Source of the DNA: Eubacteriales bacterium
Lineage (GTDB): Bacteria > Bacillota > Clostridia > Oscillospirales > CAG-272
Reading direction: 5' to 3'
DNA length: 34,094 nt
Assembly: GCA_045121195.1 (NCBI GenBank)
Contig: JBGVFO010000174.1
Location: 1-34,094, forward strand
Below are positions 8,425-20,320 of this stretch, piece after piece; positions within the stretch are counted from its first letter, which is position 1, and every line of letters begins with the position of its first letter. A program made the translations under genes and the position numbers. Below the pieces are notes generated by a model. The model searched no databases. It had not been told where the DNA came from and saw only the letters and a list, made by a program, of their open reading frames with translations.

Positions 8425-8509
8425 GCGGGCGTGGCGGAATTGGCAGACGCGCCAGACTTAGGATCTGGTGGTTTTCACCGTGGGGGTTCAAGTCCCTTCG
8501 CCCGCACCA
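8425..8509 (+). tRNA. tRNA-Leu (anticodon UAG), CCA encoded
   Basis: Acceptor GCGGGCG/CGCCCGC-A-CCA, D-loop GGAATTGGCAGA, anticodon arm CCAGA-CTTAGGA-TCTGG, long variable arm, GGTTCAAGTCC T-arm. Confidence 0.97.
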
Positions 8510-8515
8510 AACAGT

Positions 8516-8563
8516 AGAAATCCGAACCCAAAGCCGATAGGCGAAGGGTTCGGATTTCTTTTT
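8516..8563 (+). terminator. Element-supplied terminator after tRNA (overlaps attL arm)
   Basis: AGAAATCCGAACC...GGTTCGGATTTCT stem followed by T-tract. Confidence 0.75.
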
Positions 8564-8682
8564 GTGTTCGGTGATATGTGATGCTGACTTGCTGTTGTTG
8601 GCATCACGCCCGAGCACCGCCCAAGTAAATATCCTTGATAGTTGATGCCAAACAAACACATTTTGAAGAAAGGATATTTACG

Positions 8683-9039
8683 ATGAAAAACGAAATTACT
8701 TATACCGAACATAACGGACTTTACTACCCAGATCTTGCACTCCCCGAGCAGACGAGTTTCACTCTTGGTAAGTATGCAAACCTGCGCCTTGACTTTATAA
8801 AAAAGCATTGTCGCGGAACTTACACCACCCTGCTCACCGAAGGACGATTAAACGAACACCTACACGCCATTGATATTCATGCTCACAAATTGCTCGATGA
8901 CATAATTCCTCGCCTCGCCAAAGAACGTGGCGTAGACGAAGTTCTGAAGGCTCACAACGCGCTTCGGTGGACTGTCGAGATGAACAACATCAAAGCAAGT
9001 GCAGAAGAAATCGTTCTCAAGGAGGTCGTCTACAAATGA
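8683..9039 (+). CDS. tnpV: TnpV family protein
   Basis: ITY...GLYYPDL, LGKYA.LR..F, YTTLL..GRLNEHL..ID, MNNIKASAEEIVLKEVVY typical of TnpV. Confidence 0.9.
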   Translation: MKNEITYTEHNGLYYPDLALPEQTSFTLGKYANLRLDFIKKHCRGTYTTLLTEGRLNEHLHAIDIHAHKLLDDIIPRLAKERGVDEVLKAHNALRWTVEMNNIKASAEEIVLKEVVYK

Positions 9040-9302
9040 GAGCTATTCTTGAAGAATTATTTTACGGCAACATCTGCCCCAACACCGATTGCAGAAGTCA
9101 CGATAAAGAAACGAAGCAGTTAATGGGATACATAGCCGATCATCACGATAACCTACTCTCCACGCTAAATGATCGGCAAAAGGAAATTCTTGAAAAGTTC
9201 GATGATTGCTATAACGAGCTGACCGATATCAACGAGCGCGAGATCTTTGTGTATGCGTTCAAGTTTGGGATGAGAATAGCAATAGAGGTATTAACCGAGT
9301 AA
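9036..9302 (+). CDS. Small conserved hypothetical protein (DUF6809-like)
   Basis: ILEELFYGNI.P...F..AFKFG.RI..E pattern; ATGA overlap with tnpV stop and GGAGG RBS. Confidence 0.7.
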   Translation: MRAILEELFYGNICPNTDCRSHDKETKQLMGYIADHHDNLLSTLNDRQKEILEKFDDCYNELTDINEREIFVYAFKFGMRIAIEVLTE

Positions 9303-9369
9303 CTACATTGTTAGGCATACAGATTGCAATTTGCGTCTGTATGCCTTTTTATATTAGCGCACACAAAAT

Positions 9370-9421
9370 CCTACAAAAACCTACAAATATACTTGAAAAA
9401 CAACCCCAAATATGTTATAAT
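9370..9421 (+). promoter_or_regulatory. Sigma-A promoter with upstream direct repeats
   Basis: TTGAAA 9393-9398, 17 bp, TGnTATAAT (-10 at 9416-9421); CCTACAAA repeated at 9370 and 9380. Confidence 0.7.
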
Positions 9422-9457
9422 ATTAACTGTAAGATTATATTTTCGGGAGATAAAGAA

Positions 9458-9652
9458 ATGTCTAACAATATTGATTTGTCTGATCGCTGGTATTCCACCA
9501 AAGAAATTTGCGCTTATCTTGGAATTAGCCGCGACACTTTGCTTGTGTGGATTGCAAGCAAAAATATGCCCGCACACAAAGTAGGGCGAAATTGGAAGTT
9601 CAAGGTTAGCGAAGTGGATGAATGGATTAAAAGCGGCAAGGCAGCTGAGTAA
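9458..9652 (+). CDS. Excisionase-family helix-turn-helix DNA-binding protein
   Basis: RWYSTKEICAYLGISRDTL..WI....MPAHKVGRNWKFKVSEVDEWIKSG; GGGAG RBS. Confidence 0.9.
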   Translation: MSNNIDLSDRWYSTKEICAYLGISRDTLLVWIASKNMPAHKVGRNWKFKVSEVDEWIKSGKAAE

Positions 9653-9676
9653 AACGCTGAAAAAGGAAAAGACAGA

Positions 9677-10696
9677 ATGAACATAACATTTTTAATTGGC
9701 AATGGTTTCGATCTTAATTTAGGTCTTCGCACAAGGTATACAGATTTTTATAAGTATTATATGAAGAATAACCCAAACGATTTAATTTCAAAATCAATCT
9801 CAAAAGACTATGAATTGTGGGCTGATTTGGAAATTGGTTTAGGCGCTTTCTTGGAGAAAATCGATGAAACTCAAATAGAGGAATTTCTTGATAGTAAGCG
9901 GAATTTGGAAAAAATGCTTTCTGAATATTTAACTTTGCAAAATCAAAGAATTTCTCTTCCAAACGAGTCGGCAATTGCTGAGGAATTCAAAAAGAAAACA
10001 ACAGGCTTCTTTGATGATTTTAATGCTTCTGACAAAGATGATTATAAAAAAGCAGTTGCAAATATTCGCGAAACTATAAATTATTCATTTATAACTTTCA
10101 ACTATACCGACGTTCTTGATAAGATAATTCTTGCAGCACAACAAAAATGCAAACCTTTCGGTAACCATACGTCTGGTGGTACAGGTCACAATGATGCCGT
10201 GAAATCTGCGCACCATGTTCACGGTAAATTGACCGAAGATTTAATTTTGGGATTAGATAATAAAGATCAAATAATGAACGAGAAGTTGAAAAATAATCCT
10301 CGCTTAACAAATTACATAATTAAGTCTACAGTTAATAAGGCGTTAGGGGAAAGAAAAACAGAAATTGCCAAAGATATTATTGACAAGAGTAGATATATTT
10401 GCCTTTTTGGACTTTCAATTGGGGATACTGATGCTTTATGGTGGACATATATTATTCAATGGTTAAACAAGAGCGCCGAAAACAGATTGGTTTTGTTCGT
10501 TAATGAAAATACAATGGTACAACTTTCGGGACAGGAAAAGATTCGATTTAGAGATGCCAAAAGATCGAATATGTTGGATCGAAGCAAATGTACCGATACT
10601 AAGATTATGGAAACTGTTCAAGATAGGATAATTGTGGTTCCTAATTCCAAAATCTTTACTTTTGAGGACATTGTAGTAGAGAATGAAGTTGAGTGA
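9677..10696 (+). CDS. AbiH family (SIR2-like) abortive infection protein
   Basis: FLIGNGFDLNLG.RT.Y.DF, WADLE..LG, ITFNYT, HVHG, FGLSIGDTD motifs. Confidence 0.85.
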   Translation: MNITFLIGNGFDLNLGLRTRYTDFYKYYMKNNPNDLISKSISKDYELWADLEIGLGAFLEKIDETQIEEFLDSKRNLEKMLSEYLTLQNQRISLPNESAIAEEFKKKTTGFFDDFNASDKDDYKKAVANIRETINYSFITFNYTDVLDKIILAAQQKCKPFGNHTSGGTGHNDAVKSAHHVHGKLTEDLILGLDNKDQIMNEKLKNNPRLTNYIIKSTVNKALGERKTEIAKDIIDKSRYICLFGLSIGDTDALWWTYIIQWLNKSAENRLVLFVNENTMVQLSGQEKIRFRDAKRSNMLDRSKCTDTKIMETVQDRIIVVPNSKIFTFEDIVVENEVE

Positions 10697-10768
10697 ATCT
10701 AAAAAGATCATTGTGTTAATTTTTGAGCCAAAATCAATATGCTACTTGCGTAATTATAAGGATTTACT

Positions 10769-12658
10769 ATGACAGAAAAGAAATATATAACTGAAAACGC
10801 CGAGTTGATGAGGGAATGGGATTGGGGACAAAATAATGCGATTGGGCTTGATCCTCAAAAACTTTCTATCGGATCTCAAAAAGTTGCTTTTTGGATTTGT
10901 TCAACTCATGGAACAAAATTCAAACAAGCAATACGTGCAAGAGAACGGGGGCAAAGAGGATGCCCAGAATGTTTGAATGAATGGAAAAATTCTATAAGTC
11001 GAAAAAGGTATATTGATGGAAAAAAGGTTTTAGCCGAAACTCATCCAAATTTAGTTACAGAATGGGTTAGTTGTGATAACCCCAAATTCACTCCATATAC
11101 TTGCGTAGCTGGTTCAAATATAAAAGTGAAATGGAAATGTCAAAAGTGTGGCGGTGAATATGATGCATATATTGTTAATCGCACAAAGCAAGGTTCATCT
11201 TGTCCTTATTGTGCAAATCAAAAGGTGCTTATAGGATACAATGATTTGCAATCACAAATTCCCGCTTTGGCTGCCGAATGGAGCAATAAAAATACTATAA
11301 AACCGACCGAGGTCACAGCACACTCAAAAAAAGAATTTTATTGGATTTGTCCGCTGGGACATGATGATTATCCCATGTCTGTCAAGCGACGTAGCAATAG
11401 ACAAGGTTGCCCTGTTTGCGCTCAGCAAAGCCAAACCTCTTTTCCCGAGCAAGCTATTTACTATTATCTTAAACAAGTGTTTCCTGACACATTAAATAGG
11501 TACATATCGGATAAACGTGAAATCGATATATTTATTCCATCGAAAAACATCGGATTTGAATATAATGGATATTTTTCGCACAAGAAGAAAGCGGAAAAGG
11601 ATGCCGCCAAAAAGACTTTCTTTCATTCGGTCGGCGTAACTTTATTTATCATCAAAGAATACAAAACAGAAGAAGAAAGAGACAATGCGGATTATTATAT
11701 TCACGAAAGAACGACTTTCAAGAATTTAAATAATTTGATTAGAAAAATTCTTTTGGATTTAAATGTTGAAACGTCGGTTGATGTTGATTGCGAAAGAGAT
11801 GCTATTGCAATTAAAAATCAATATGTTATCTTGCGTAAAGAAAATAGTATCGCTGCTGTCCGTCCAGATTTAGTTGTGTTTTGGGATTACGAGAAAAACG
11901 GCTCAATAACGCCTGAAATGGTCACGCTTGGAACAGGTCAACGCTTCTATTGGAAATGTCGGATTTGTAACAGTTCTTATTTAAATTGGCCGAGCAGAAT
12001 AGCACAAGGAAGCGTATGCTCAAAGCATCGCAATCTCGTAAAGAAAGGTATAAATGATTTAGCAACACTACACCCAGAATTACTAAAATATTGGGACTAT
12101 GATAAAAACGATGTTGATCCGTCAGAAATATATGGTGGCGGAGAACGAGTAGTATATTGGAAATGCGAGAAAGGACATAGCTATCCGAAATCTATTTTAA
12201 AGCATGTGCGTGGTGAGGGATGTCCTATCTGTGCCGGTAAAAAGGTATTGGCAGGGTTTAATGATCTTCTGTCTCAAAACCCAGAACTCGCTAAAGAATG
12301 GGATTACGAACTTAATGACTGCCAGCCGGATCAAATTCACTATAATAGTCAGTCAAAAAAAGTTCATTGGATTTGCTCTGTGTGTGGTCATAGGTGGCAA
12401 TACAAAGTAAGTAACAGAAATAATTGTCCTGAATGCGAAAAAAAGAAAAAACAAATCAATGTGTATGATGCTGTTGATTTAACTTTTATAGGAACATTCG
12501 ATGATATCAAGGCATTATGCGAATATTTGGGGCTGAATTACAAAAAGCAACACGGAAATATTTCTTCAGCTTGCGGTCGAAAGCAGAAAACATTAATGGG
12601 AAAGTACATCTTACGTCACGCCAATGATGATGAATATGAAAATAAAACACAGCGTTAA
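10769..12658 (+). CDS. Multi zinc-ribbon repeat protein with central restriction-endonuclease-like domain
   Basis: Repeats of P.L..EW...KN...P......S...WxC...GH...GCPxC; central TSFPEQ...EIDIFIP..IGFEYNG..H. Confidence 0.8.
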   Translation: MTEKKYITENAELMREWDWGQNNAIGLDPQKLSIGSQKVAFWICSTHGTKFKQAIRARERGQRGCPECLNEWKNSISRKRYIDGKKVLAETHPNLVTEWVSCDNPKFTPYTCVAGSNIKVKWKCQKCGGEYDAYIVNRTKQGSSCPYCANQKVLIGYNDLQSQIPALAAEWSNKNTIKPTEVTAHSKKEFYWICPLGHDDYPMSVKRRSNRQGCPVCAQQSQTSFPEQAIYYYLKQVFPDTLNRYISDKREIDIFIPSKNIGFEYNGYFSHKKKAEKDAAKKTFFHSVGVTLFIIKEYKTEEERDNADYYIHERTTFKNLNNLIRKILLDLNVETSVDVDCERDAIAIKNQYVILRKENSIAAVRPDLVVFWDYEKNGSITPEMVTLGTGQRFYWKCRICNSSYLNWPSRIAQGSVCSKHRNLVKKGINDLATLHPELLKYWDYDKNDVDPSEIYGGGERVVYWKCEKGHSYPKSILKHVRGEGCPICAGKKVLAGFNDLLSQNPELAKEWDYELNDCQPDQIHYNSQSKKVHWICSVCGHRWQYKVSNRNNCPECEKKKKQINVYDAVDLTFIGTFDDIKALCEYLGLNYKKQHGNISSACGRKQKTLMGKYILRHANDDEYENKTQR

Positions 12659-12680
12659 TTGTAAATGGAGGTAGGAAAAA

Positions 12681-13727
12681 ATGTTCTTCTTCGAACAACA
12701 AAAGTGGAAAAAAGTTGAGTATTCTCGAAGCAAAATTATTAAGTCGGGAAAAATAATCAAAGATACTTCCGCAACAGAAGATCAAATCAAAGAGGCTACT
12801 GCCGTGATTGATAATTGGCGAGCCGCACATGCATACCCCCTTCACGTGATTTACACTCATTTACGAAGAATGGCAAGTAATAGACCAAACATAATCGTTG
12901 CTGAACGATTGAAACGATTAGATTCAATTATTAACAAGTTAAAGCGCGAGCCCTCTATGAGCTTGTGGACTATGCAAGATTTGGGCGGGTGTAGATATAT
13001 CGTTCCTAAAATTAAAGATGTGTATGGAAGTGCAAATCAATACGAATCCTCACGAAAAAGGCATTTGAAAGTGGATGAATACGATTATATTGAGCATCCT
13101 AAAACATCCGGATATAGAAGTTATCATGTTGTTTATGAATATAAAAGTGATGTCAATGATACATACAACAAAAACATGATGGTTGAGATCCAATTTAGAA
13201 CTCACTTGCAGCACGTTTGGGCAACGGCGGTTGAAACAATGGGCTTATTCACAAAGCAAGCAATAAAATCGGGGCAAGGCTCCGATGATGTCAAGAGATT
13301 CTTTGCTTTAGTATCATCTTTGTTTGCGATTAAAGAGAACTGTCCTTTGGTTCCGGGAACTCCTACTGACATTGACGAAATTGTATCAGAGATTGAGGAA
13401 ATCAACAGTCGGTGCAATTATATAGATATGTTAAGTGCCATTCGTGTTGCGGTAGATGACCAAGATAACAAACACTTTCAACAACAAGGATATTATATTT
13501 TGATATTGAATTATAATACCCGTATGCTAAAAGTAAAACACTTTAAGCCGAGTCAACTTGAAGCAGCTACTGAAATATATCAAAGCATAGAGAGAACACG
13601 TGCAGAATCTAAAATTGATGCAGTTTTGGTACGTGTTGATTCCTTCAAGACATTGAAGTCGGCTTATCCAAACTACTTTTCTGATATTGGAGAATTTATC
13701 AGCTTGGTGAAATCATATCTTTCGTAA
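12681..13727 (+). CDS. RelA/SpoT-domain toxSAS with C-terminal antitoxin-like region (CapRel-like)
   Basis: NWRAAHAYP, RLKRLDSI..KL, QDLGGCR, GYRSYH, EIQFRT..QH.WATAVE, C-terminal AYPNYF.D (YxxY). Confidence 0.8.
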   Translation: MFFFEQQKWKKVEYSRSKIIKSGKIIKDTSATEDQIKEATAVIDNWRAAHAYPLHVIYTHLRRMASNRPNIIVAERLKRLDSIINKLKREPSMSLWTMQDLGGCRYIVPKIKDVYGSANQYESSRKRHLKVDEYDYIEHPKTSGYRSYHVVYEYKSDVNDTYNKNMMVEIQFRTHLQHVWATAVETMGLFTKQAIKSGQGSDDVKRFFALVSSLFAIKENCPLVPGTPTDIDEIVSEIEEINSRCNYIDMLSAIRVAVDDQDNKHFQQQGYYILILNYNTRMLKVKHFKPSQLEAATEIYQSIERTRAESKIDAVLVRVDSFKTLKSAYPNYFSDIGEFISLVKSYLS

Positions 13728-13751
13728 TAATTTGGCGACATATTTGGCAAT

Positions 13752-13803
13752 AAAGCCGTTATCAAAGCGTGATTGACACGCCGCGATAGCGGCCTTTCCT
13801 TTC
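13752..13803 (+). terminator. Probable terminator of defence operon
   Basis: GCCGTTATC..GCGTG / CACGC..GATAGCGGC stem followed by pyrimidine tract. Confidence 0.55.
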
Positions 13804-13823
13804 TAAAAATTTCGTAAAGCCTA

Positions 13824-13874
13824 TTGACAAAATTTCATTCGTATGCTATAATTACTACGCGGTACAAATGTACC
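13824..13874 (+). promoter_or_regulatory. Consensus sigma-A promoter with downstream palindromic operator
   Basis: TTGACA 13824-13829, 17 bp, TGcTATAAT 13844-13852; GGTACA-aa-TGTACC at 13861-13874. Confidence 0.85.
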
Positions 13875-13895
13875 TCGAATAAAACGGAGGCATTT

Positions 13896-14501
13896 ATGAA
13901 TAAGTGGAGTCCCGAGAGGGCGGAGGCGATCCGCCAATTTATAGACGACTATTTCATGGAGAACCGCAAGTCTCCGACGGTGCGCGACATTGCGGCAGGT
14001 ACGGGTATCTCCAAGACCTCGGTGCAGAGATACCTCACCGATATGAAAGAGCACGGAGAGATCGAATACAACGGTCGACGCAGCATCGGAACAAATCTTT
14101 CTCGAAATATGTTTGAAACTACGCCCGCGATTCGATACGATTCCACCGTGTCATGCGGGTTGCCGAGTGAACCGAACGTGGAAGAAGCAGACATCATTCC
14201 ACTCCCTACCGCGCTTGTTGGTGACGGAAAGTTTTTCATACTTACTGCTAAAGGTGACTCAATGACGGGCATTGGAGTTGACGATGGCGATCTCGTTATC
14301 GTGCGCGAGCAGAACACTTGCAAGGACGGAGACTATGCTGTTGTCCTTGTAAACGGAACTGAAACGCTGCTCAAAACGATAACCTATCTTCCCGATAAGA
14401 AAGCATATTTGCTTCACGCTGAAAATCCCGATTACGATGATCGTATTGAGCGCAACGTGCAGATTCAAGGAATTGCTACACAAGTTATAAAGAAACTTTG
14501 A
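13896..14501 (+). CDS. LexA-like repressor (winged HTH + S24 peptidase)
   Basis: SPTVRDIAAGTGIS HTH, VSCG cleavage site, GDSM Ser, TLLK Lys; GGAGG RBS before ATG 13896. Confidence 0.88.
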   Translation: MNKWSPERAEAIRQFIDDYFMENRKSPTVRDIAAGTGISKTSVQRYLTDMKEHGEIEYNGRRSIGTNLSRNMFETTPAIRYDSTVSCGLPSEPNVEEADIIPLPTALVGDGKFFILTAKGDSMTGIGVDDGDLVIVREQNTCKDGDYAVVLVNGTETLLKTITYLPDKKAYLLHAENPDYDDRIERNVQIQGIATQVIKKL

Positions 14502-14514
14502 CAACTCTCTGCTT

Positions 14515-14870
14515 GTCTATCAGTCTTAGCAAGCACTGCTTTTGGATATCCAAAAGCCATTCTTGCTAATATGTCCGTTGGTCTTAGCAAGCATCGCGTT
14601 TGTCATGACAAACGGTCCAACGGTCTCAGCAAGCATCGCCGTTGTGTCCCAAATCCCAACGGAAACAAAAAAATGTATTCAATGTGTCTGCTTGTCTTAG
14701 CAAGCATCGCGGTTGGACGCCCAAAGCCAACCGAAAGAAAATACATCAGTCGCAGCAAGCACTGCCTTTGTGTACCAAAGCTGTCTGTCAGTCTTAGCAA
14801 GCACTGGATTTGGGCGTCCAAATCCGTCTATTAGTCGCAGCAAGCACTGCTTTTGTCATGACAGACAAAA
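14515..14870 (-). repeat. Array of 7 units: variable inverted repeat + conserved core (candidate oriT-mimic array)
   Basis: + strand core GTC(T/G)(T/C)AGCAAGCA(CT/TC)G at 14523, 14581, 14623, 14694, 14749, 14791, 14834, each followed at fixed distance by TTG-N5/6-CA(A/G)A inside a hairpin. Confidence 0.9.
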
Positions 14871-14890
14871 CCTTAGGAGGTAAATGTAAT

Positions 14891-15214
14891 TTGAAGGTCA
14901 AAGAAATGTTAAATAGAATGATCGACATTCTCAAAGATAAGCACACCACGTGGGTTTATTTAGAGCTTCCACAAATTAACGTTGAAGCACTGCGCAAAAG
15001 AATCATTGCGATTCTAAAGGACAAGCACGGTGGTGCGAATATGGGATTGGATATCCCCGATGATGAAATCGAAGCTCTCGCTGATGTGCTCCTTCCCGGT
15101 GTTATAAAATTCTTCTCCTCTGATGAATGGCGCGCGGAGCTTGACGCGTGGAGGAAAGAGCAAGAATTATTAGCGCAGAATAAGATTCAAGCTGCCGAAA
15201 ATAAAGTATCTTAA
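14891..15214 (+). CDS. Small hypothetical protein upstream of recombinase, with internal duplication
   Basis: AGGAGG at 14875-14880, TTG start (ATG 14906 alternative); ILKDKH...L..P....EAL occurs twice. Confidence 0.65.
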   Translation: MKVKEMLNRMIDILKDKHTTWVYLELPQINVEALRKRIIAILKDKHGGANMGLDIPDDEIEALADVLLPGVIKFFSSDEWRAELDAWRKEQELLAQNKIQAAENKVS

Positions 15215-15246
15215 TCCTCACGTTATCGTGACAGAAAGGAGAGTCA

Positions 15247-16725
15247 ATGACAGGAGTAATATACGCTCGATATTCCTCGGACAATCAGCGAGAGGAATCG
15301 ATTGAAGGTCAGCTCCGTGAATGTCAAGCCTTCGCCAAGAAGAATGACATCACCCTGCTTGAACCTTATATAGACCGCGCCCTATCGGCAAAGACAGACA
15401 ACCGCCCGAACTTTCAAAAGATGATCAAAGATAGCGCGGCGAAAAAGTTTGACATTGTTATAGTTTGGAAGTTGGATAGATTTGCCCGCAATCGTTTCGA
15501 TTCGGCACACTACAAAAGTGTTCTCCGCAAGAATGGCGTGAAGGTCGTATCCGCAACCGAAGCGATCTCCGAAGGCGCAGAAGGTATCCTTCTTGAATCA
15601 ATGCTCGAAGGTATGGCTGAATACTACTCTGCTGAGCTCTCTGAGAAAGTGGTACGAGGTCTGACCGAAAACGCGCTCAAATGCAAATACAATGGCGGTA
15701 CACTTCCCATCGGATATACAGTTGATGAAAATCAATTCTTCCAAGTTGATCCCGTCACCGCACCTGCTGTTCTTGATGCGTTCAAGAAATACGCCAAGGG
15801 CGCAACGATGCAAGAGATCACCGACGAGCTAAATATCAAAGGTATTCGCACAGTCAGAGGAACGAAGATTAGCCTTAACACCGTGACAAGAATGCTACAC
15901 AACCGCCGATACATAGGTGAGTATCAATATCGTGATGTGGTTGTTCCCAACGGAATCCCCGCTATCGTTCCTGCTAAGTTGTTCGAACAAGTCCAAGAGA
16001 GAGCCGCCGCAAACAAGAAGGCTCCCGCCAAGCACAAAGCCGAGGACGAGTATCTGCTGACAACAAAACTGTTCTGCGGTTATTGTAAGTGTCTGATTAC
16101 GGGAGAAAGCGGAACGAGTCATACGATGGAAGTCCATCGCTATTACAAATGCCGAGGAACTCGTAAGGGTGGAACGTGTAAGAAGAAAACCATCAAGAAG
16201 AAATGGATCGAAGAAGTAGTGATTCTGCTCATTCAGAAGTTCATCTTTGACGATGAATTGCTCGACAGACTTGCAGATATGCTGATCGCCAAGCTCAATG
16301 CCGAGAGCAGCACGCTCCCGATTCTTCGCAAGCAGCTTGATGAAATCGAAAAAGGCATTGACAATCTTGTCAACGCCATTCAAGCGGGAATTCTCACCGC
16401 ATCAACCAAGCAACGTCTTGAGCAACTCGAAGCCGAAAAGAGCGAGATCTCGGTGCAGATTCTCAAAGAAGAAATTGCTAAACCCACGGTTACAAAAGAC
16501 GATATACTCGCGTATCTTATCAAGTACCGCAAGCTTAATATGAAACAGCTTGACCACCGCCGCCGTCTGATCGATAGCTTCGTCAATGCGATCTATCTGT
16601 TCGACGACTACTTGGTCATTGCATTCAACTATAAGGAAGGCACAAAAACAATCACCTTTGCCGAAATTGAGGAGGCATTTGGTTCGGATTTATCATCACT
16701 CACTGCACCAAATAAGGAACAGTAG
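15247..16725 (+). CDS. Large serine recombinase (resolvase + recombinase + Zn-ribbon + coiled coil)
   Basis: IYARYSS catalytic Ser, DRALSAK...RPNFQKMI, KLDRFARNR, YLLTTKLFCGYC, YYKC; C-terminus runs through attR. Confidence 0.96.
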   Translation: MTGVIYARYSSDNQREESIEGQLRECQAFAKKNDITLLEPYIDRALSAKTDNRPNFQKMIKDSAAKKFDIVIVWKLDRFARNRFDSAHYKSVLRKNGVKVVSATEAISEGAEGILLESMLEGMAEYYSAELSEKVVRGLTENALKCKYNGGTLPIGYTVDENQFFQVDPVTAPAVLDAFKKYAKGATMQEITDELNIKGIRTVRGTKISLNTVTRMLHNRRYIGEYQYRDVVVPNGIPAIVPAKLFEQVQERAAANKKAPAKHKAEDEYLLTTKLFCGYCKCLITGESGTSHTMEVHRYYKCRGTRKGGTCKKKTIKKKWIEEVVILLIQKFIFDDELLDRLADMLIAKLNAESSTLPILRKQLDEIEKGIDNLVNAIQAGILTASTKQRLEQLEAEKSEISVQILKEEIAKPTVTKDDILAYLIKYRKLNMKQLDHRRRLIDSFVNAIYLFDDYLVIAFNYKEGTKTITFAEIEEAFGSDLSSLTAPNKEQ

Positions 16726-16757
16726 ATTGATACAATCGTATCGACCTACTGTTTTTT
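16718..16757 (+). terminator. Intrinsic terminator just beyond attR
   Basis: AACAGTAG-a-TTGATAC-aatc-GTATCGA-c-CTACTGTT then T-tract. Confidence 0.75.
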
Positions 16758-17087
16758 ATTTCACCGTCAGGTGAAATGTTTTATCGTTAAAAATTAGCCG
16801 AAAGTCCTTGATTTACAAGCGCTTTTTTGTTTTCGTGGTGCATTTCGGTATATGTGGTGCCTATATCTTGTGTCTCGGACGTCCTAAAATGCAGAAAAGC
16901 ACTACTCCCCGTCAAGGTGTAGTGCCTTCCTATCGTTAAAAGACCGCTATTCGTTAAATTACTGATTTTAATGGAAAGATTTATAAAAATTCTTTTGTTT
17001 CTTATTGACATCGCATAAAAAGTGTGATGTGCTGTTAGCAAAGGAGCGAACAAGCGAACAGCTATCGCTTTTTAAGGAGGTACGACT

Positions 17088-17459
17088 ATGAATTTCGGAG
17101 AATTTATTAAGCAAAAACGCACGGAAAAAGGGTTGAATCTTCGTAAGCTTGCAGAACTGATGGATATCGCTCCCGCCTATTTAAGCGATATTGAAAAAGG
17201 CAAACGCAACTCTCCTTCACCGGAGAAAATGTCAAAGCTTGCAGAACTGCTGGAACTGACCGAAGAAGAGGTTCTTTTGATGAATGACCTTGCAGCAGAG
17301 GCTCGCACTAATACCGTTGCTCCAGACATTTCTGAATACGTAATGAGCAATGGCTCCGTACGCATTGCGCTCCGCAAAGCCAGAGAACTCAATCTCGGTG
17401 ACAAAGAGTGGATGCAAATTATTGAATCTATGACAAAGGATGAAACAGAAGGTACTTAA
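17088..17459 (+). CDS. XRE-family HTH regulator
   Basis: FGEFIKQKR..KGLNLRKLA....IAPAYLSDIEKGKR; AAGGAGG RBS. Confidence 0.92.
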   Translation: MNFGEFIKQKRTEKGLNLRKLAELMDIAPAYLSDIEKGKRNSPSPEKMSKLAELLELTEEEVLLMNDLAAEARTNTVAPDISEYVMSNGSVRIALRKARELNLGDKEWMQIIESMTKDETEGT

Positions 17460-18149
17460 ATGATCTACACCAAGGAAAAACTTGAAGAATTAGCCGATTC
17501 CATAAACAAAGAATATTTTCCCGCAAGGCTTACTTCTGCAAGCCCTTTGGATTGTTACGACCTTTTGGACGCATTAGGATGTGAGGTTGAATGGAAGTAC
17601 ATTTCCCCCGACGATAGCATTCTTGGTGCCACATTTTTCGATGACGGTTATTGGTATATATGGCCCGATGGAACTTTTCATAAAGGTGATATGTTTACTA
17701 CTGAATATTTTCCCAAAGGCACTATTCTTATCAATCAACGTGTTCTGGATTCAAAGGCAAAAACTGCTCGTGGAAGCGAGAATTTTATAGTCGGTCACGA
17801 ATGTGCGCATTGGATTAAAGACCAAGAATATTTTAGCAAACACGCTGCAAAAGATGTTTTCCACGTTTGCAAGAAAAATGACTTTGGTTCTACATGGTGG
17901 AATAATTCTATGAGCAAACTTGAAATAATTGAGCGTCAAACGAATTATCTCGACGCTGCCATCTTAATGCCACGTGATGTGATTCGATCTGAATTTTTTA
18001 GAATTTCTCGTTATAAAAACATTCCAAACCAACCGCTCGAATTCAAAAATTATATGAAGAAATGGATTGCCGTGCTTTCGCAGAAGTTCGGAGTAAACTT
18101 CAACCCGGTAAAATACCGTCTTCAAGATTTAGGAATCATATCGAGGTGA
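17460..18149 (+). CDS. ImmA/IrrE family metallo-endopeptidase
   Basis: ENFIVGHECAHW (HExxH), E.QTNY..AAILMP, LSQKFGV...V.YRL..LG; coupled to XRE gene. Confidence 0.88.
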   Translation: MIYTKEKLEELADSINKEYFPARLTSASPLDCYDLLDALGCEVEWKYISPDDSILGATFFDDGYWYIWPDGTFHKGDMFTTEYFPKGTILINQRVLDSKAKTARGSENFIVGHECAHWIKDQEYFSKHAAKDVFHVCKKNDFGSTWWNNSMSKLEIIERQTNYLDAAILMPRDVIRSEFFRISRYKNIPNQPLEFKNYMKKWIAVLSQKFGVNFNPVKYRLQDLGIISR

Positions 18150-18338
18150 GCAATTTTATCAAAAGGGGTGATGCTTATAATTTTGTATGCGGCATAAGAA
18201 ACTGCTACCAACGGTGACTTATGCATTTCGGAAAACTGAATATTCAGGGGATATAAGAGTTCTTCAGTAAGCCGTTGTATTCTTATCCCCTACCTTTACT
18301 ACTATTTTAAATTTTTCAGAAAGGTAGGTGAATAACCT

Positions 18339-19025
18339 ATGATTAAAGGTCTCACAGAGTTTGAGAAGTATAAGGTTATTCGTCCTGTCATCGGGGATTG
18401 CGAATATGACAAATACGGTTTCCCCTTGATTCGGCGTTTAACTCGCAATTTGGATTACGAAAAATTAGAGGTTCGTAATTTCAAGTGTATGAAATCGTTG
18501 GCTGACAATGACAACAAGCTGTTGATGATGTTCTGCTACGACAAAGATTTACTGCGTTTTTGGAATGACCCATTGAAGCGAATTCCTACTATGCAAACAT
18601 ATGCCGCCGTGGCTACTCCCGATTTCAGCATTTATCCCACAATGAATATCAATGAAATTCGTCATAATATTTATATAGGCAGATGGTTGGGGCGCACGTG
18701 GTAAAATTACGGCTTGTCCGTAATACCTACAATCGGTTGGGCGTCGCCCGATACTTACGATATGTGCTTTAGTGCCATAGAAAATGGAACTCCCGTAATC
18801 ATATCTACCTTGGGGTGTACTGATTACCAAGAAGATTTTTTGCGAGGCTTTAACCAAATGAAGGCGCGTATCAATCCGCCTATCATAATAGTGTTCGGCA
18901 ATATGATACAAAGGATGACAGGAACATTCCTGAATTTCAAGTATACCGAGTCCTTTGCTGTAAAAAACAAGCAGTTGAAAATTGAGGGGATTCCTTCAAT
19001 GTTCACGATAAAGGAGGCGGTATAA
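18339..19025 (+). pseudogene. DUF4417 family protein interrupted by an in-frame TAA at 18702-18704
   Basis: F.YD..L.RFWNDP, TPDFSIY..M, NIY..RWLG.TW*NYGLSVIPTIGW continue in the same frame across the stop. Confidence 0.8.
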
Positions 19026-19414
19026 TGGGTTCTCGTGGCGCATTTGTTGATGTCAACACCGGAAATTTTAGTTTTGTGCAAGGTGGGCAACATTATATGT
19101 CATTGGGGTCTTTAAGTAGCAATCCCAACGTCAAAGTTATCATTCAAGATTCCAATGCGGTGAAAGCTCCCGAATACTCTCATACCCCAGGAAGAATCTA
19201 TGCCGTTGTTAAAAATGGCGAGCTGAAGCATCTCGCATATTATGACGAAGCTCATAAACAAGCGGTAAGCATTGACCTTGCGCACGACCATAAAGGAGTG
19301 CAACCGCATCGTCATGTTTATCTCAGTCACAATAAAAACGACCCTGGCATTCCCCCAACGCCAGAAGAATCTGCTTTAATAAAAAAGATAAAGAAGGAGT
19401 TTCATTTACGATGA
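19025..19414 (+). CDS. MGSRG-leader protein with His-rich nuclease-like C-terminus (candidate toxin)
   Basis: N-terminus MGSRGA, C-terminal SIDLAHDHKGVQPHRH; AGGAGG RBS, overlaps upstream stop. Confidence 0.6.
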   Translation: MGSRGAFVDVNTGNFSFVQGGQHYMSLGSLSSNPNVKVIIQDSNAVKAPEYSHTPGRIYAVVKNGELKHLAYYDEAHKQAVSIDLAHDHKGVQPHRHVYLSHNKNDPGIPPTPEESALIKKIKKEFHLR

Positions 19415-19758
19415 GAAAAAACGAATTTAATTCCCTTGAAGAGTTTACATCACAATATATCGGTGTTTGGGGGCCTTCGGACGGTCATTGGTTTGGCTTG
19501 GATTTTTCTTATAACGGCACAGAATATAGATTTAACACAGGGTCTATATATGAAAAGCAGGATACCATTTTACCTAACGGCAAAGAGGCTCTCTTCGGTA
19601 TCTATCGTAAAGACAGCAATCCTAAAACAAAAAAGAAGTATATTTTGCTTGAGGAATTTGCTGATATGGAGGATGCCTTAAATAGCACGTGTATTGAGGG
19701 TGTTGCTTTTAGAGAAGTAATAATGGATGACAATACCGAGATCTTAGGACAAGATTAA
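19411..19758 (+). CDS. Small acidic hypothetical protein (candidate immunity protein)
   Basis: ATGA overlap with preceding gene, AAGGAG RBS, 115 aa. Confidence 0.65.
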   Translation: MRKNEFNSLEEFTSQYIGVWGPSDGHWFGLDFSYNGTEYRFNTGSIYEKQDTILPNGKEALFGIYRKDSNPKTKKKYILLEEFADMEDALNSTCIEGVAFREVIMDDNTEILGQD

Positions 19759-19829
19759 AAAAAGCCCGGCAAGTGCTACCAACACTTATCGGGCGACTTT
19801 CAAAGGATATAAGAATCCTTCAGTAAGCA
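19757..19829 (-). ncRNA. Putative ~72-nt small antisense RNA
   Basis: Minus-strand TTGATT (19862-19857), 16 bp, TGaTATAAT (19840-19835); two hairpins, the second GCCCGATAAGTG-TTGGTAG-CACTTGCCGGGC followed by a U-tract. Confidence 0.6.
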
Positions 19830-19977
19830 CTATCATTATATCATATTTTGCAAAAAAATCAATAGCTTTCGTGTAAAAAAGACGAAAGAATTACTGATTT
19901 TTCTGCATTTATGCTCTTGAGATGATATTTCAAGGTAAAAAGAAAGAGTCGGCTATATTAGTCGGCTCTTTCGTTAT

Positions 19978-20085
19978 TTATATCATCACCGTCTCTTGGC
20001 TGCCGTTGCGGAAGGTGAACACAAGCCGTCCGTCACCCAAGACGATGATTCGGTCAACAGTGACGCGGAATCGGTCATCTGTCTT
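19978..20085 (-). pseudogene. C-terminal remnant of a serine recombinase
   Basis: Manual translation KTDDRFRVTVDRIIVLGDGRLVFTFRNGSQETVMI*, resembling the final beta-strands of large serine recombinases; no start codon or upstream frame. Confidence 0.6.
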
Positions 20086-20320
20086 CTATGCACAATTTCC
20101 ACTTTCAAGGCTTCATTGTATTAATGAGTGAGTCCCTACACAAGAACATCCCATCACCCTCCGGTGGTGGGGTGTCTTTTTGAATCGGATGAAGAACCTT
20201 GGAATTTCCTTTTTCTTCCATAGATATTGATTTTCACCCTCTCATATGGTATAATAAATCAAACGATATGCTTTCAACCCGCTCCGCACTTGCGTGGAAT
20301 ACCCCCCCAAAGGAGGACTT

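Follow-up and report, generated by a model that had tools for sequence, protein, structure and literature searches.

Tandem oriT-like units with diversified hairpins on a relaxase-less serine-recombinase element of gut Clostridia: a candidate cassette for mobilisation by several helpers

Many genomic islands, defence islands included, have no known means of transfer, and the locus described here raises the question of how such an island could move. The window, which is the whole stretch of DNA analysed, comprises the 34,094 nucleotides of contig JBGVFO010000174.1 from a Eubacteriales bacterium (assembly GCA_045121195.1). It includes a low-G+C island adjoining a tRNA-Leu gene and, within this island, at positions 14515-14870, an array of seven units in the same orientation. 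The initial annotation had read these units as tandem variants of an origin of transfer (oriT) on an element that lacks a relaxase and could be mobilised by several helpers, and the comparison with helper origins presented here supports that reading. On the strength of the sequence comparison it is nearly certain that the units derive from the oriT of Tn1549-family/MOBP7-type elements of Clostridia, and it is probable that they act as origins of different specificity, through which several helpers would mobilise the island. In that case a cassette of seven origins is the sole conjugation-related content of an 8-kb island, and a sequence-defined mechanism of transfer can be proposed for gut Clostridia.

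On the plus strand the units consist of a core, GTC-N5-GTC-KYAGCAAGCA-YYG-N, and, after it, a hairpin that varies between units and has TTTG-N5/6-CAAA as its general form, plus additional flanking pairs; GTC-N5-GTC is found in six of the seven units, the first GTC being missing from unit 5. The pattern GTCNNAGCAAGCAYYG (at most one mismatch) matches the window at 14523, 14581, 14623, 14694, 14749, 14791 and 14834, always as the plus-strand pattern, and at no other site. These seven matches compare with 0.04 expected, and none of 100 shuffled sequences attained seven. Only two more one-mismatch matches, neither of them in an array, are found in the rest of the assembly, which totals 1.94 Mb in 215 contigs and is 91% complete. 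Read on the minus strand, on which the proposed nicks lie, the layout of a unit is an inverted repeat, 8-10 nt, and TGCTTG|CTAAGAC-N5-GAC. Unit 1 occupies positions 14515-14557, with the core at 14523-14538, the hairpin at 14538-14557 (centre GGATATCC) and the proposed nick at 14530/14529. In the same order, the coordinates are 14573-14614, 14581-14596, 14597-14614 (centre GTCATGAC) and 14588/14587 for unit 2; 14615-14662, 14623-14638, 14639-14662 and 14630/14629 for unit 3; 14686-14733, 14694-14709, 14710-14733 (centre GGACGCCC) and 14701/14700 for unit 4; 14741-14780, 14749-14764, 14766-14780 (centre GTGTACC) and 14756/14755 for unit 5; 14783-14825, 14791-14806, 14806-14825 (centre GGGCGTCC) and 14798/14797 for unit 6; and 14826-14870, 14834-14849, 14851-14870 (centre GTCATGAC) and 14841/14840 for unit 7. 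The centre of unit 6 is the reverse complement of that of unit 4. The spacing of the units is irregular (58, 42, 71, 55, 42 and 43 bp), and the variable part is the hairpin within each unit. The positions of the seven units, their spacings, their hairpin centres and the constant 15 nt that run on the minus strand from CAA to the end of TGCTTG in all seven had been given correctly in the initial annotation, whose nick coordinates also follow from the core positions.

Folding of the single strand gave a hairpin of 5-8 bp in each of the seven units, located 5' of the core on the minus strand and ending 8-10 nt before the proposed nick. The z-scores of the single-unit folds range from -0.9 to -3.2, so that individual units fold modestly better than shuffled sequences. 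Across the family, a perfect stem of at least 5 bp lies within 6 nt of the core in 80% of 115 distinct post-core tails, as compared to 6.8% of shuffled ones. Three other kinds of repeat were considered and set aside. The irregular spacing of 42-71 bp, together with the lack of any cas, rep or par family above the Pfam cut-off among the open reading frames (ORFs) scanned, does not fit a CRISPR array or iteron or centromere repeats. Tandem attachment sites of the recombinase would be palindromic around a centre, which the units are not, and the units also adjoin relaxase genes. The units do not fit sigma-54 or extracytoplasmic-function sigma factor promoters on reading.

In two genomes of the same genus (G004:C9 and G007:C230) a single unit is located directly upstream of a gene for a NikA/MobC-type ribbon-helix-helix protein (PF21983/PF05713) and a PF03432 relaxase gene, which are followed by DUF3801. 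PcfM and DUF3991-Toprim genes precede the unit in both, and G004:C9 also carries a gene for a VirD4-type coupling protein. The usual order at MobC-linked loci is Toprim/PcfM - unit - MobC - relaxase - DUF3801, and the gene order of G004 and G007 resembles, by our own comparison, the Tn1549-family conjugation module as described in excerpts of PMC12084326. A scan of one genome per species yielded at least 120 loci, and the figures given for it refer to the 120 loci listed; the patterns used for scanning bias which origins are recovered. The first downstream ORF was MobC-like in 44 of the 120 loci, belonged to the family of the small ORF that follows the array of the window in 14, and belonged to another unknown family, of 115 aa, in a further 14. 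The remaining loci were singletons, including evident chance matches in unrelated phyla. Matches in records of Jiulongibacter, Bacillus, Methylomonas, Pirellulaceae, Acidobacteriaceae and Bacteroidales, as well as four 16-mer matches in relatives (L010, L014, L016 and L017), have no hairpin and were considered chance, and they were left in the denominators. A relaxase was detected by tblastn in 27 of the listed loci. The scan of metagenomes, performed with the canonical form of the origin, gave 67 loci, 30 of them relaxase-linked and 15 more with a MobC-like gene only (tblastn). The single copies directly upstream of mobC and a MOBP relaxase gene that the initial annotation had led us to look for were found in 57 loci (27 + 30), one unit in each, and the loci with a MobC-like ORF amounted to 85.

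The canonical origin at these loci consists of the core, a hairpin of the NATTTG...CAAATN kind, the sequence (C)GCTTGTTAGGGG-loop-CCCCTAA-ACCCC and then the ribosome-binding site (RBS) of mobC. A second, conserved hairpin, TTAGGGG-loop-CCCCTAA-(A/C)ACCCC, is located between the nick module and mobC in the canonical origins read, from Clostridia elements to an Enterococcus plasmid. The latter, a conjugative plasmid of Enterococcus faecium, has the same core and hairpin and the second hairpin upstream of mobC, and a pC221-like Staphylococcus plasmid has the arrangement repeat-GAC-GCTTGCC, also upstream of mobC. In both plasmids the distance from the repeat to the core agrees with that in the units. 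The relaxase of G004 (locus L029) matches 911 plasmid records, mainly from Enterococcus, Staphylococcus and Lactococcus, and the two that were checked (H16 and H20) are typed MOBP. At L029 and L031 the origin as a whole lies within an outer pairing, CGACGGGG...CCCCGTCG.

The position and strand of the nick can be proposed by comparison with pRS01, whose oriT substrate reads inverted repeat - TA - TGCTTGC and, at a length of 96 nt, gave a 61-nt product (Novikova et al. 2014, excerpts of PMC4256276). Counting, with the label assumed to be at the 5' end, would place the pRS01 nick at a distance of 8 nt from the repeat, at TGCTTG|C, and the units of the window have the same layout on the minus strand. 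The origin of G004 is nearly palindromic and its plus strand also offers a GCTTG after the hairpin. A plus-strand nick at this GCTTG, before the second hairpin, was rejected because that arm is not conserved: it is missing in L031, L030, L050 and L054, while the minus-strand core is found in every MobC-linked origin read. Plasmid pC221 is reportedly nicked at GCTTG|CC, and the minimal origin of Tn1549 is said to be 28 bp long and to consist of the repeat plus the core. A nick on the minus strand implies that the Toprim and PcfM genes of the helpers would lead and the relaxase gene would enter last, which is the usual arrangement; the genes upstream of the helper origins (primase-like Toprim and PcfM) fit a leading region. 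In the element of the window the same strand would carry a LexA-like repressor gene and the defence cargo in the lead and the recombinase gene at the end.

Within one helper clade, the relaxases are 56-90% identical to that of G004 and all origins carry GTC-N5-GTC, and the hairpins differ: the centre is GTCATGAC in L029 and L216, GTAATGAC in L031, GGATATCC in L169, GTGTACC in L183 and L205, GGATAGCC in L190 and GAATATTC in L215. The C-terminal two thirds of MobC are nearly constant in this clade and the N-terminal ribbon-helix-helix part diverges; the beta-strand P-(I/V)-Q-x-Y-L is common to the three loci that have GT(C/A)ATGAC, and the other loci differ from it. The comparison was extended to the 85 MobC-linked loci (80 distinct), among which 111 pairs have a C-terminal identity of at least 0.7. 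The N-terminal identity was 0.87 where the hairpins are alike (88 pairs) and 0.50-0.54 where they are different (23 pairs), while the C-terminal identity was 0.87-0.91 throughout. Since N-terminal identity drops with hairpin difference and the C-terminus is constant, a change of the repeat goes along with a change in the DNA-binding head of MobC. The expectation that the hairpin type would track the MobC clade therefore holds for the N-terminal ribbon-helix-helix part, whereas the rest of MobC and the relaxase stay alike whatever the hairpin.

Five of the seven units have a counterpart beside a relaxase gene. A core and hairpin near-identical to those of unit 1 lie upstream of mobC-relaxase in L169, and unit 2 has its counterpart in the same position in L216. 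The hairpin centre of unit 4 is found upstream of MobC-relaxase genes in G005 (L289), on a contig that also has a coupling protein gene; the pattern scans missed this locus because its core begins with CTC instead of GTC. Unit 5 shares its centre with L183 and L205, with compensating changes in the stem, and unit 7 shares its centre with L029, all three upstream of mobC-relaxase. Both G004 and G005, of the same genus, hold an array as well as a matching helper. Among the Logan contigs, one loose end hints at sequence like that of unit 4 joined to a helper-type context. Two scans of viral contigs for the hairpin types of units 3, 4 and 6 gave no matches.

We infer binding, nicking, strand and mobilisation from these comparisons, and the following course of events can be proposed. 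The element would excise as a circle, and a co-resident helper would supply MobC, a protein of the ribbon-helix-helix type, which would bind the inverted repeat in the unit that matches its own specificity. MobC would then recruit the helper relaxase, which would nick the matching unit, and the minus strand would be transferred 5' to 3', led by the LexA-like repressor gene and the defence cargo, with the recombinase operon at the end. Units of other specificity would be ignored, and this would keep the array from collapsing. The seven different repeats would in this manner permit the use of helpers from several MobC specificity classes. The array could have arisen as a key ring in an arms race, in which helpers exchange the DNA-binding head of MobC together with the matching repeat and so shake off hitch-hikers, and relaxase-less islands in turn collect one origin per specificity in a tandem cassette kept by selection; for this last idea we see the chances as evenly balanced. 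If it is true, the unit content of an array would record which helper classes circulate in a community, and minimal hitch-hikers that move defence genes between species would in general be recognisable by their multi-origin cassettes. The array and the modular divergence of the MobC head make the encoding of origin specificity testable, and likewise the widening of the helper range by stacked origins. They also provide a signature with which minimal hitch-hikers can be searched for in metagenomes: the core plus hairpin, in tandem, with no relaxase.

The distribution of unit numbers was analysed with one detector applied to all loci. Relaxase-linked loci had a single unit in 27 of 27 cases in the genome scan and in 30 of 30 in the metagenome scan, and 13 of the 16 relaxase-less loci with the small ORF or an adjacent recombinase gene had 2-7 units; multi-unit arrays were found only in relaxase-less elements. 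Since the loci are related to one another, these counts by element type are descriptive. Further multi-unit, relaxase-less loci have other backbones (G434, L049, L053, L055 and L054). In 14 of the 120 listed loci (L060, L069, L090, L115 and L128 among them) a single unit is followed by an unknown ORF of 100-121 aa, and in 7 of these 14 tblastn identified a distant serine recombinase 1-2 kb upstream; such loci may be a further type of relaxase-less carrier. The restriction of multi-unit arrays to relaxase-less elements would also be compatible with a decoy, in which the array titrates the MobC and relaxase of conjugative elements, invading or resident, and so serves an anti-conjugation function on a defence island, and seven sites of several specificities next to AbiH and other defence-like genes could be read in the same way. 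Such a function is very unlikely: seven sites per chromosomal copy are few for titration, a nicked decoy would itself be mobilised and is therefore hard to separate from hitch-hiking, and nothing points to a reduced presence of helpers, four of the five array-bearing genomes tested holding PF03432 relaxases and coupling proteins.

Many gut assemblies, of human and ruminant origin, show the arrangement LexA-like gene - array - small ORF - recombinase gene; they belong to Oscillospiraceae, Acutalibacteraceae and other Clostridia. Related arrays have 3, 4, 5, 6 or 7 units (14 array-bearing loci from other assemblies), and the order 1-2-3-4-5-6-7 is always kept; the comparison of unit number and order that the initial annotation had called for thus shows variation in the former and conservation of the latter. 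Losses of units are deletions with their junctions in the conserved core, such that a unit's left flank now adjoins the hairpin from a unit further along, and they fit relaxase-mediated joining and ordinary recombination alike. In some six-unit arrays (L051 and L161) unit 5 survives without its hairpin. Arrays that lack a full unit 5 (L051, L161, L121, L027, L028 and L061) have a remnant, CAGCAAGCTG, from which the hairpin is cleanly gone. The loop bases of units 1 and 6 vary freely between near-identical arrays (ATAT, GCAT, ACGT, GCGT, GCAC), in which stems and cores are fixed. The array of the window is 95.3-97.4% identical to the three other seven-unit arrays, whereas in the same comparison the genes for the LexA-like protein, the small ORF product and the recombinase are 83-92% identical, with 68-80% identity at third codon positions. 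As conservation is higher in the array, which is non-coding, than in the coding sequences beside it, selection is likely to act on the whole cassette; an exchange of arrays between elements could contribute to this conservation. The variation of unit number from 3 to 7 and the six-unit arrays in which unit 5 has lost its hairpin might be taken to indicate that the array is the decaying remains of repeated origin insertions or duplications with no present function. This is scarcely to be expected of a sequence that surpasses the third codon positions of the genes on either side in conservation and whose unit order is kept in arrays from many hosts.

The array is carried by a relaxase-less serine-recombinase element of about 8.2 kb (approximately 8504-16712) that is inserted in the 3' end of the tRNA-Leu gene (8425-8509, plus strand, identified with ARAGORN). 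These limits, which agree with those given initially, are based on the positions at which homology with related elements breaks and on an 8-bp direct repeat, GCACCAAA, at both ends (8504-8511, left junction, and 16705-16712, right junction). Homology with related elements spans 8413/8424-9039 and 13750-16710/16715 and stops there, with one further start at 8502, and the intervening region 9040-13750 (the cargo) differs between copies of the element. Another repeated sequence, AACAGTAGA, has its copies at 8510-8518 and 16718-16726. In a gut metagenome (run X1, Logan) one DNA contig joins 8503 to 16705 with 8 shared letters; because its shorter side is 22 nt long, it is at most a weak hint of an empty site. 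No usable orthologue of the empty site was found among 13 genomes of the same genus searched with the right flank. A blastn search with 13824-16725 returned nothing from plasmids and, from phages, only distant recombinase matches in unannotated records.

A Pfam scan covered a chosen set of main ORFs between 8635 and 16725 and, in line with the initial annotation, detected no relaxase, coupling-protein or type IV secretion system domain and no cas family above the cut-off in the ORFs scanned. All genes of the element described here are on the plus strand. The backbone at the left end comprises a TnpV-family gene (8635-9039; PF14198, E 9.9e-35), kept in related elements, and a DUF6809 gene (8967-9302; PF20648, E 7.6e-25), which are followed by a gene for an excisionase-type helix-turn-helix protein of the HTH_17 family (9308-9652; PF12728, E 9.2e-16). 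The variable cargo (9677-13727), which is not common to other array-bearing elements, resembles a defence set: AbiH (9677-10696), a 629-aa protein with six DUF4379 treble-clef zinc fingers (10769-12658) and a 348-aa RelA/SpoT-domain protein (12681-13727), all assigned by Pfam; the last of them has one weak RAMP match below the Pfam cut-off. A sigma-70-type promoter, TTGACA-17-TATAAT (12 of 12 consensus positions, with TG), and a palindrome, GGTACAAATGTACC, at 13861-13874 together occupy 13824-13874; their function is predicted from the match to the consensus. They precede the ATG at 13896, picked from the sequence as the start of a LexA-like repressor gene (13896-14501) with a winged helix-turn-helix and an S24 peptidase domain (PF00717, E 7.7e-20; NCBIfam lexA, E 9.6e-22, below the cut-off). 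This looks like a self-repressed, damage-inducible switch, and it could drive the entire LexA-like gene - array - small ORF - recombinase stretch.

After the array, a strong RBS, AGGAGG, is found at 14875-14880, followed by a start-stop pair, ATG TAA, at 14884-14889; in related arrays a different sequence follows that site (AGGAGGTATGTA...). The small ORF (14891-15214) starts at TTG 14891 or ATG 14906 and belongs to no known family. Its product of about 100 aa has invariant P, P, F, E and W positions (alignment A1), with nothing detected in Pfam or NCBIfam and only unnamed clusters, at 0.81-0.83, in a protein atlas. In relaxase-less elements the small ORF is found along with the units, its place being before the recombinase gene or beside TnpV, and a recombination directionality factor or an origin-binding factor is a possible identity for its product. 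The large serine recombinase gene (15247-16725; Pfam Resolvase, Recombinase and Zn_ribbon_recom) crosses the right junction with its last codons, and excision as a circle would exchange these codons for left-end sequence, which would result in a longer, different C-terminus. A phage cos or pac site with small and large terminase genes was rejected, as the 492-aa protein is this recombinase. Beside the element, 16730-20200 is a second low-G+C stretch, probably another island or a remnant, with an HTH_3/M78-peptidase-like pair (ImmR/ImmA-like) and a DUF4417 gene that is divided between two ORFs (18339-18704 and 18714-19025). Elsewhere, the genome of the window includes an unrelated mobilisable element (G000:C34:994-4989, L180) with a tyrosine integrase, a NikA-like protein, an AAA_25 protein and a Mob_Pre (MOBV) relaxase.

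Several points weigh against the proposal that the units serve as origins for several helpers. Its support is entirely comparative, and the position of the label in the pRS01 experiment is an assumption. The arrays come mostly from one element family, which makes their counts interdependent. Neither a PF03432 relaxase nor a PF02534 coupling protein is present in the assembly of the window itself, 91% complete with 215 contigs, and units 3 and 6 have no counterpart beside a relaxase among the sampled loci, the nearest to unit 3 being L072 and L078. Units 2 and 7 share the centre GTCATGAC and yet both persist, which counts as a difficulty because origins of one relaxase in the same orientation should recombine. 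The second hairpin is missing after unit 7 and in 13 related array loci, and the units would be incomplete if this hairpin is needed for relaxosome assembly; in pCF10, a 40-bp fragment with the repeat and the nick suffices for PcfF binding (excerpts of PMC6514445). Finally, the array lies between genes of one probable operon with no good internal promoter, which leaves room for a regulatory or RNA role.

Three such roles were weighed. The array could be a helper-sensing operator array, whose MobC sites control read-through or expression of the small ORF and the recombinase gene and so time excision, with transfer initiation secondary or absent. The array does take the place of mobC directly upstream of these two genes, in one apparent operon with no strong internal promoter; in canonical elements the leader of mobC is where the origin is located, oriT is a site of autoregulation by accessory proteins, and the high conservation of the array fits equally. 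We nevertheless regard this alternative as unlikely, since the nick core and the 3' GAC-N5-GAC equal the repeats in conservation, and a pure MobC operator could do without them, and since an element without any origin could gain nothing from timed excision. A role unrelated to conjugation, in which the units are operators for the LexA-like repressor or for the product of the small ORF, would explain that the LexA-like gene is always immediately upstream of these arrays, but units are also found upstream of mobC-relaxase in elements that lack this gene, and the only good palindrome at the LexA-like promoter, GGTACAAATGTACC, is absent from the array, so that this role appears extremely unlikely. 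The third possibility is a structured RNA: between the LexA-like gene and the recombinase operon, the transcript would form intercistronic hairpins that serve in processing, stability or attenuation. The intergenic position inside a probable operon is consistent with it, unit 1 scores as a weak terminator-like hairpin, and contigs from an RNA library cover 14205-14535, with binned depth through 14340-14973, although DNA carry-over is possible and this coverage does not demonstrate transcription. On the other hand, no Rfam family matched positions 13000-17000 of the window, or four related loci, at E values up to 1, barring chance-level matches in leaders; the stems are short and A+T-rich, and the 16-nt core is identical in origins outside such operons and common to plasmid origins. 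An RNA role is for these reasons highly improbable.

The reading of the units as origins of different specificity can be placed among known systems. They resemble the MOBP7-type oriT of the Tn1549 family, pRS01, pCF10 and pC221 in having an inverted repeat beside a nick core, TGCTTG followed by C, with 8-10 nt between them, and homologues of the units are located in the leader of mobC-relaxase. In pCF10 and pRS01 an accessory ribbon-helix-helix protein (MobC/PcfF/LtrF type) binds the repeat and recruits the relaxase (excerpts of PMC6514445 and PMC7947834). The array differs from these origins in having seven tandem units instead of one, in the lack of mobC and relaxase genes in its element and in the missing second hairpin.

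The clostridial mobilisable transposons of the Tn4451/Tn4453 family are similar to the carrier: they have a TnpV gene, encode a large serine recombinase at one of their ends and excise, as is proposed for the carrier, as a circle, with very short end repeats. Tn4451 encodes its own MOBV relaxase (excerpts of PMC5704250). The element of the window differs from Tn4451 in that it has no relaxase or RSA site of its own and integrates in tRNA-Leu. The relaxase of Tn4451 is reportedly TnpZ, acting at the RSA site.

Integrative elements with an origin only are known, such as the mobilisable genomic island MGIVflInd1 (excerpts of PMC5704250), the "iOriT" islands of Proteobacteria (excerpts of 10.64898/2026.01.13.699239) and three mobile genetic elements of Faecalibacterium with a MOBP7-like putative oriT (excerpts of PMC12084326). 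Like the carrier described here, such elements, as described in these excerpts, have an integrase and an origin similar to that of a helper, no conjugation proteins, and defence genes close to the origin. They differ in that tandem origin arrays are not described in the excerpts of these three sources. The use of a serine recombinase also sets the carrier apart from the iOriT set, less than 1% of which has serine integrases (excerpts of 10.64898/2026.01.13.699239). The putative Faecalibacterium origins of Figure S7 in PMC12084326, which lie outside this comparison, may overlap with the unit family of the window.

A further parallel is provided by the oriT mimics on non-conjugative plasmids of staphylococci (pWBG749 and pSK41 families), in which copies of the helper origin permit mobilisation by a relaxase in trans (excerpts of PMC4993578 and PMC8136818). 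These mimics have a common core and a diverged inverted repeat that sets specificity, and in the pWBG749 system, as at the loci analysed here, the repeat varies in step with the DNA-binding head of the accessory protein (excerpts of PMC4993578). Some staphylococcal plasmids carry several mimics of different subtypes, which are thought to widen the choice of helpers (excerpts of PMC4993578 and PMC8136818). The differences are that the mimics are located on plasmids, are not described as a tandem array in the excerpts of PMC4993578, and belong to another relaxase family and another host group, while the carrier of the window is an integrative serine-recombinase element with its units in one ordered, conserved array. 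The literature searched yielded no account of diversified origins arranged as an ordered tandem array, with the proviso that Figure S7 of PMC12084326 may show related sequences. Relaxase-less elements with an origin only, and staphylococcal plasmids with several mimics each, were thus known already; what appears to be new here is that probable origins, diversified in their hairpins, form an ordered tandem array, as a variant of oriT mimicry.

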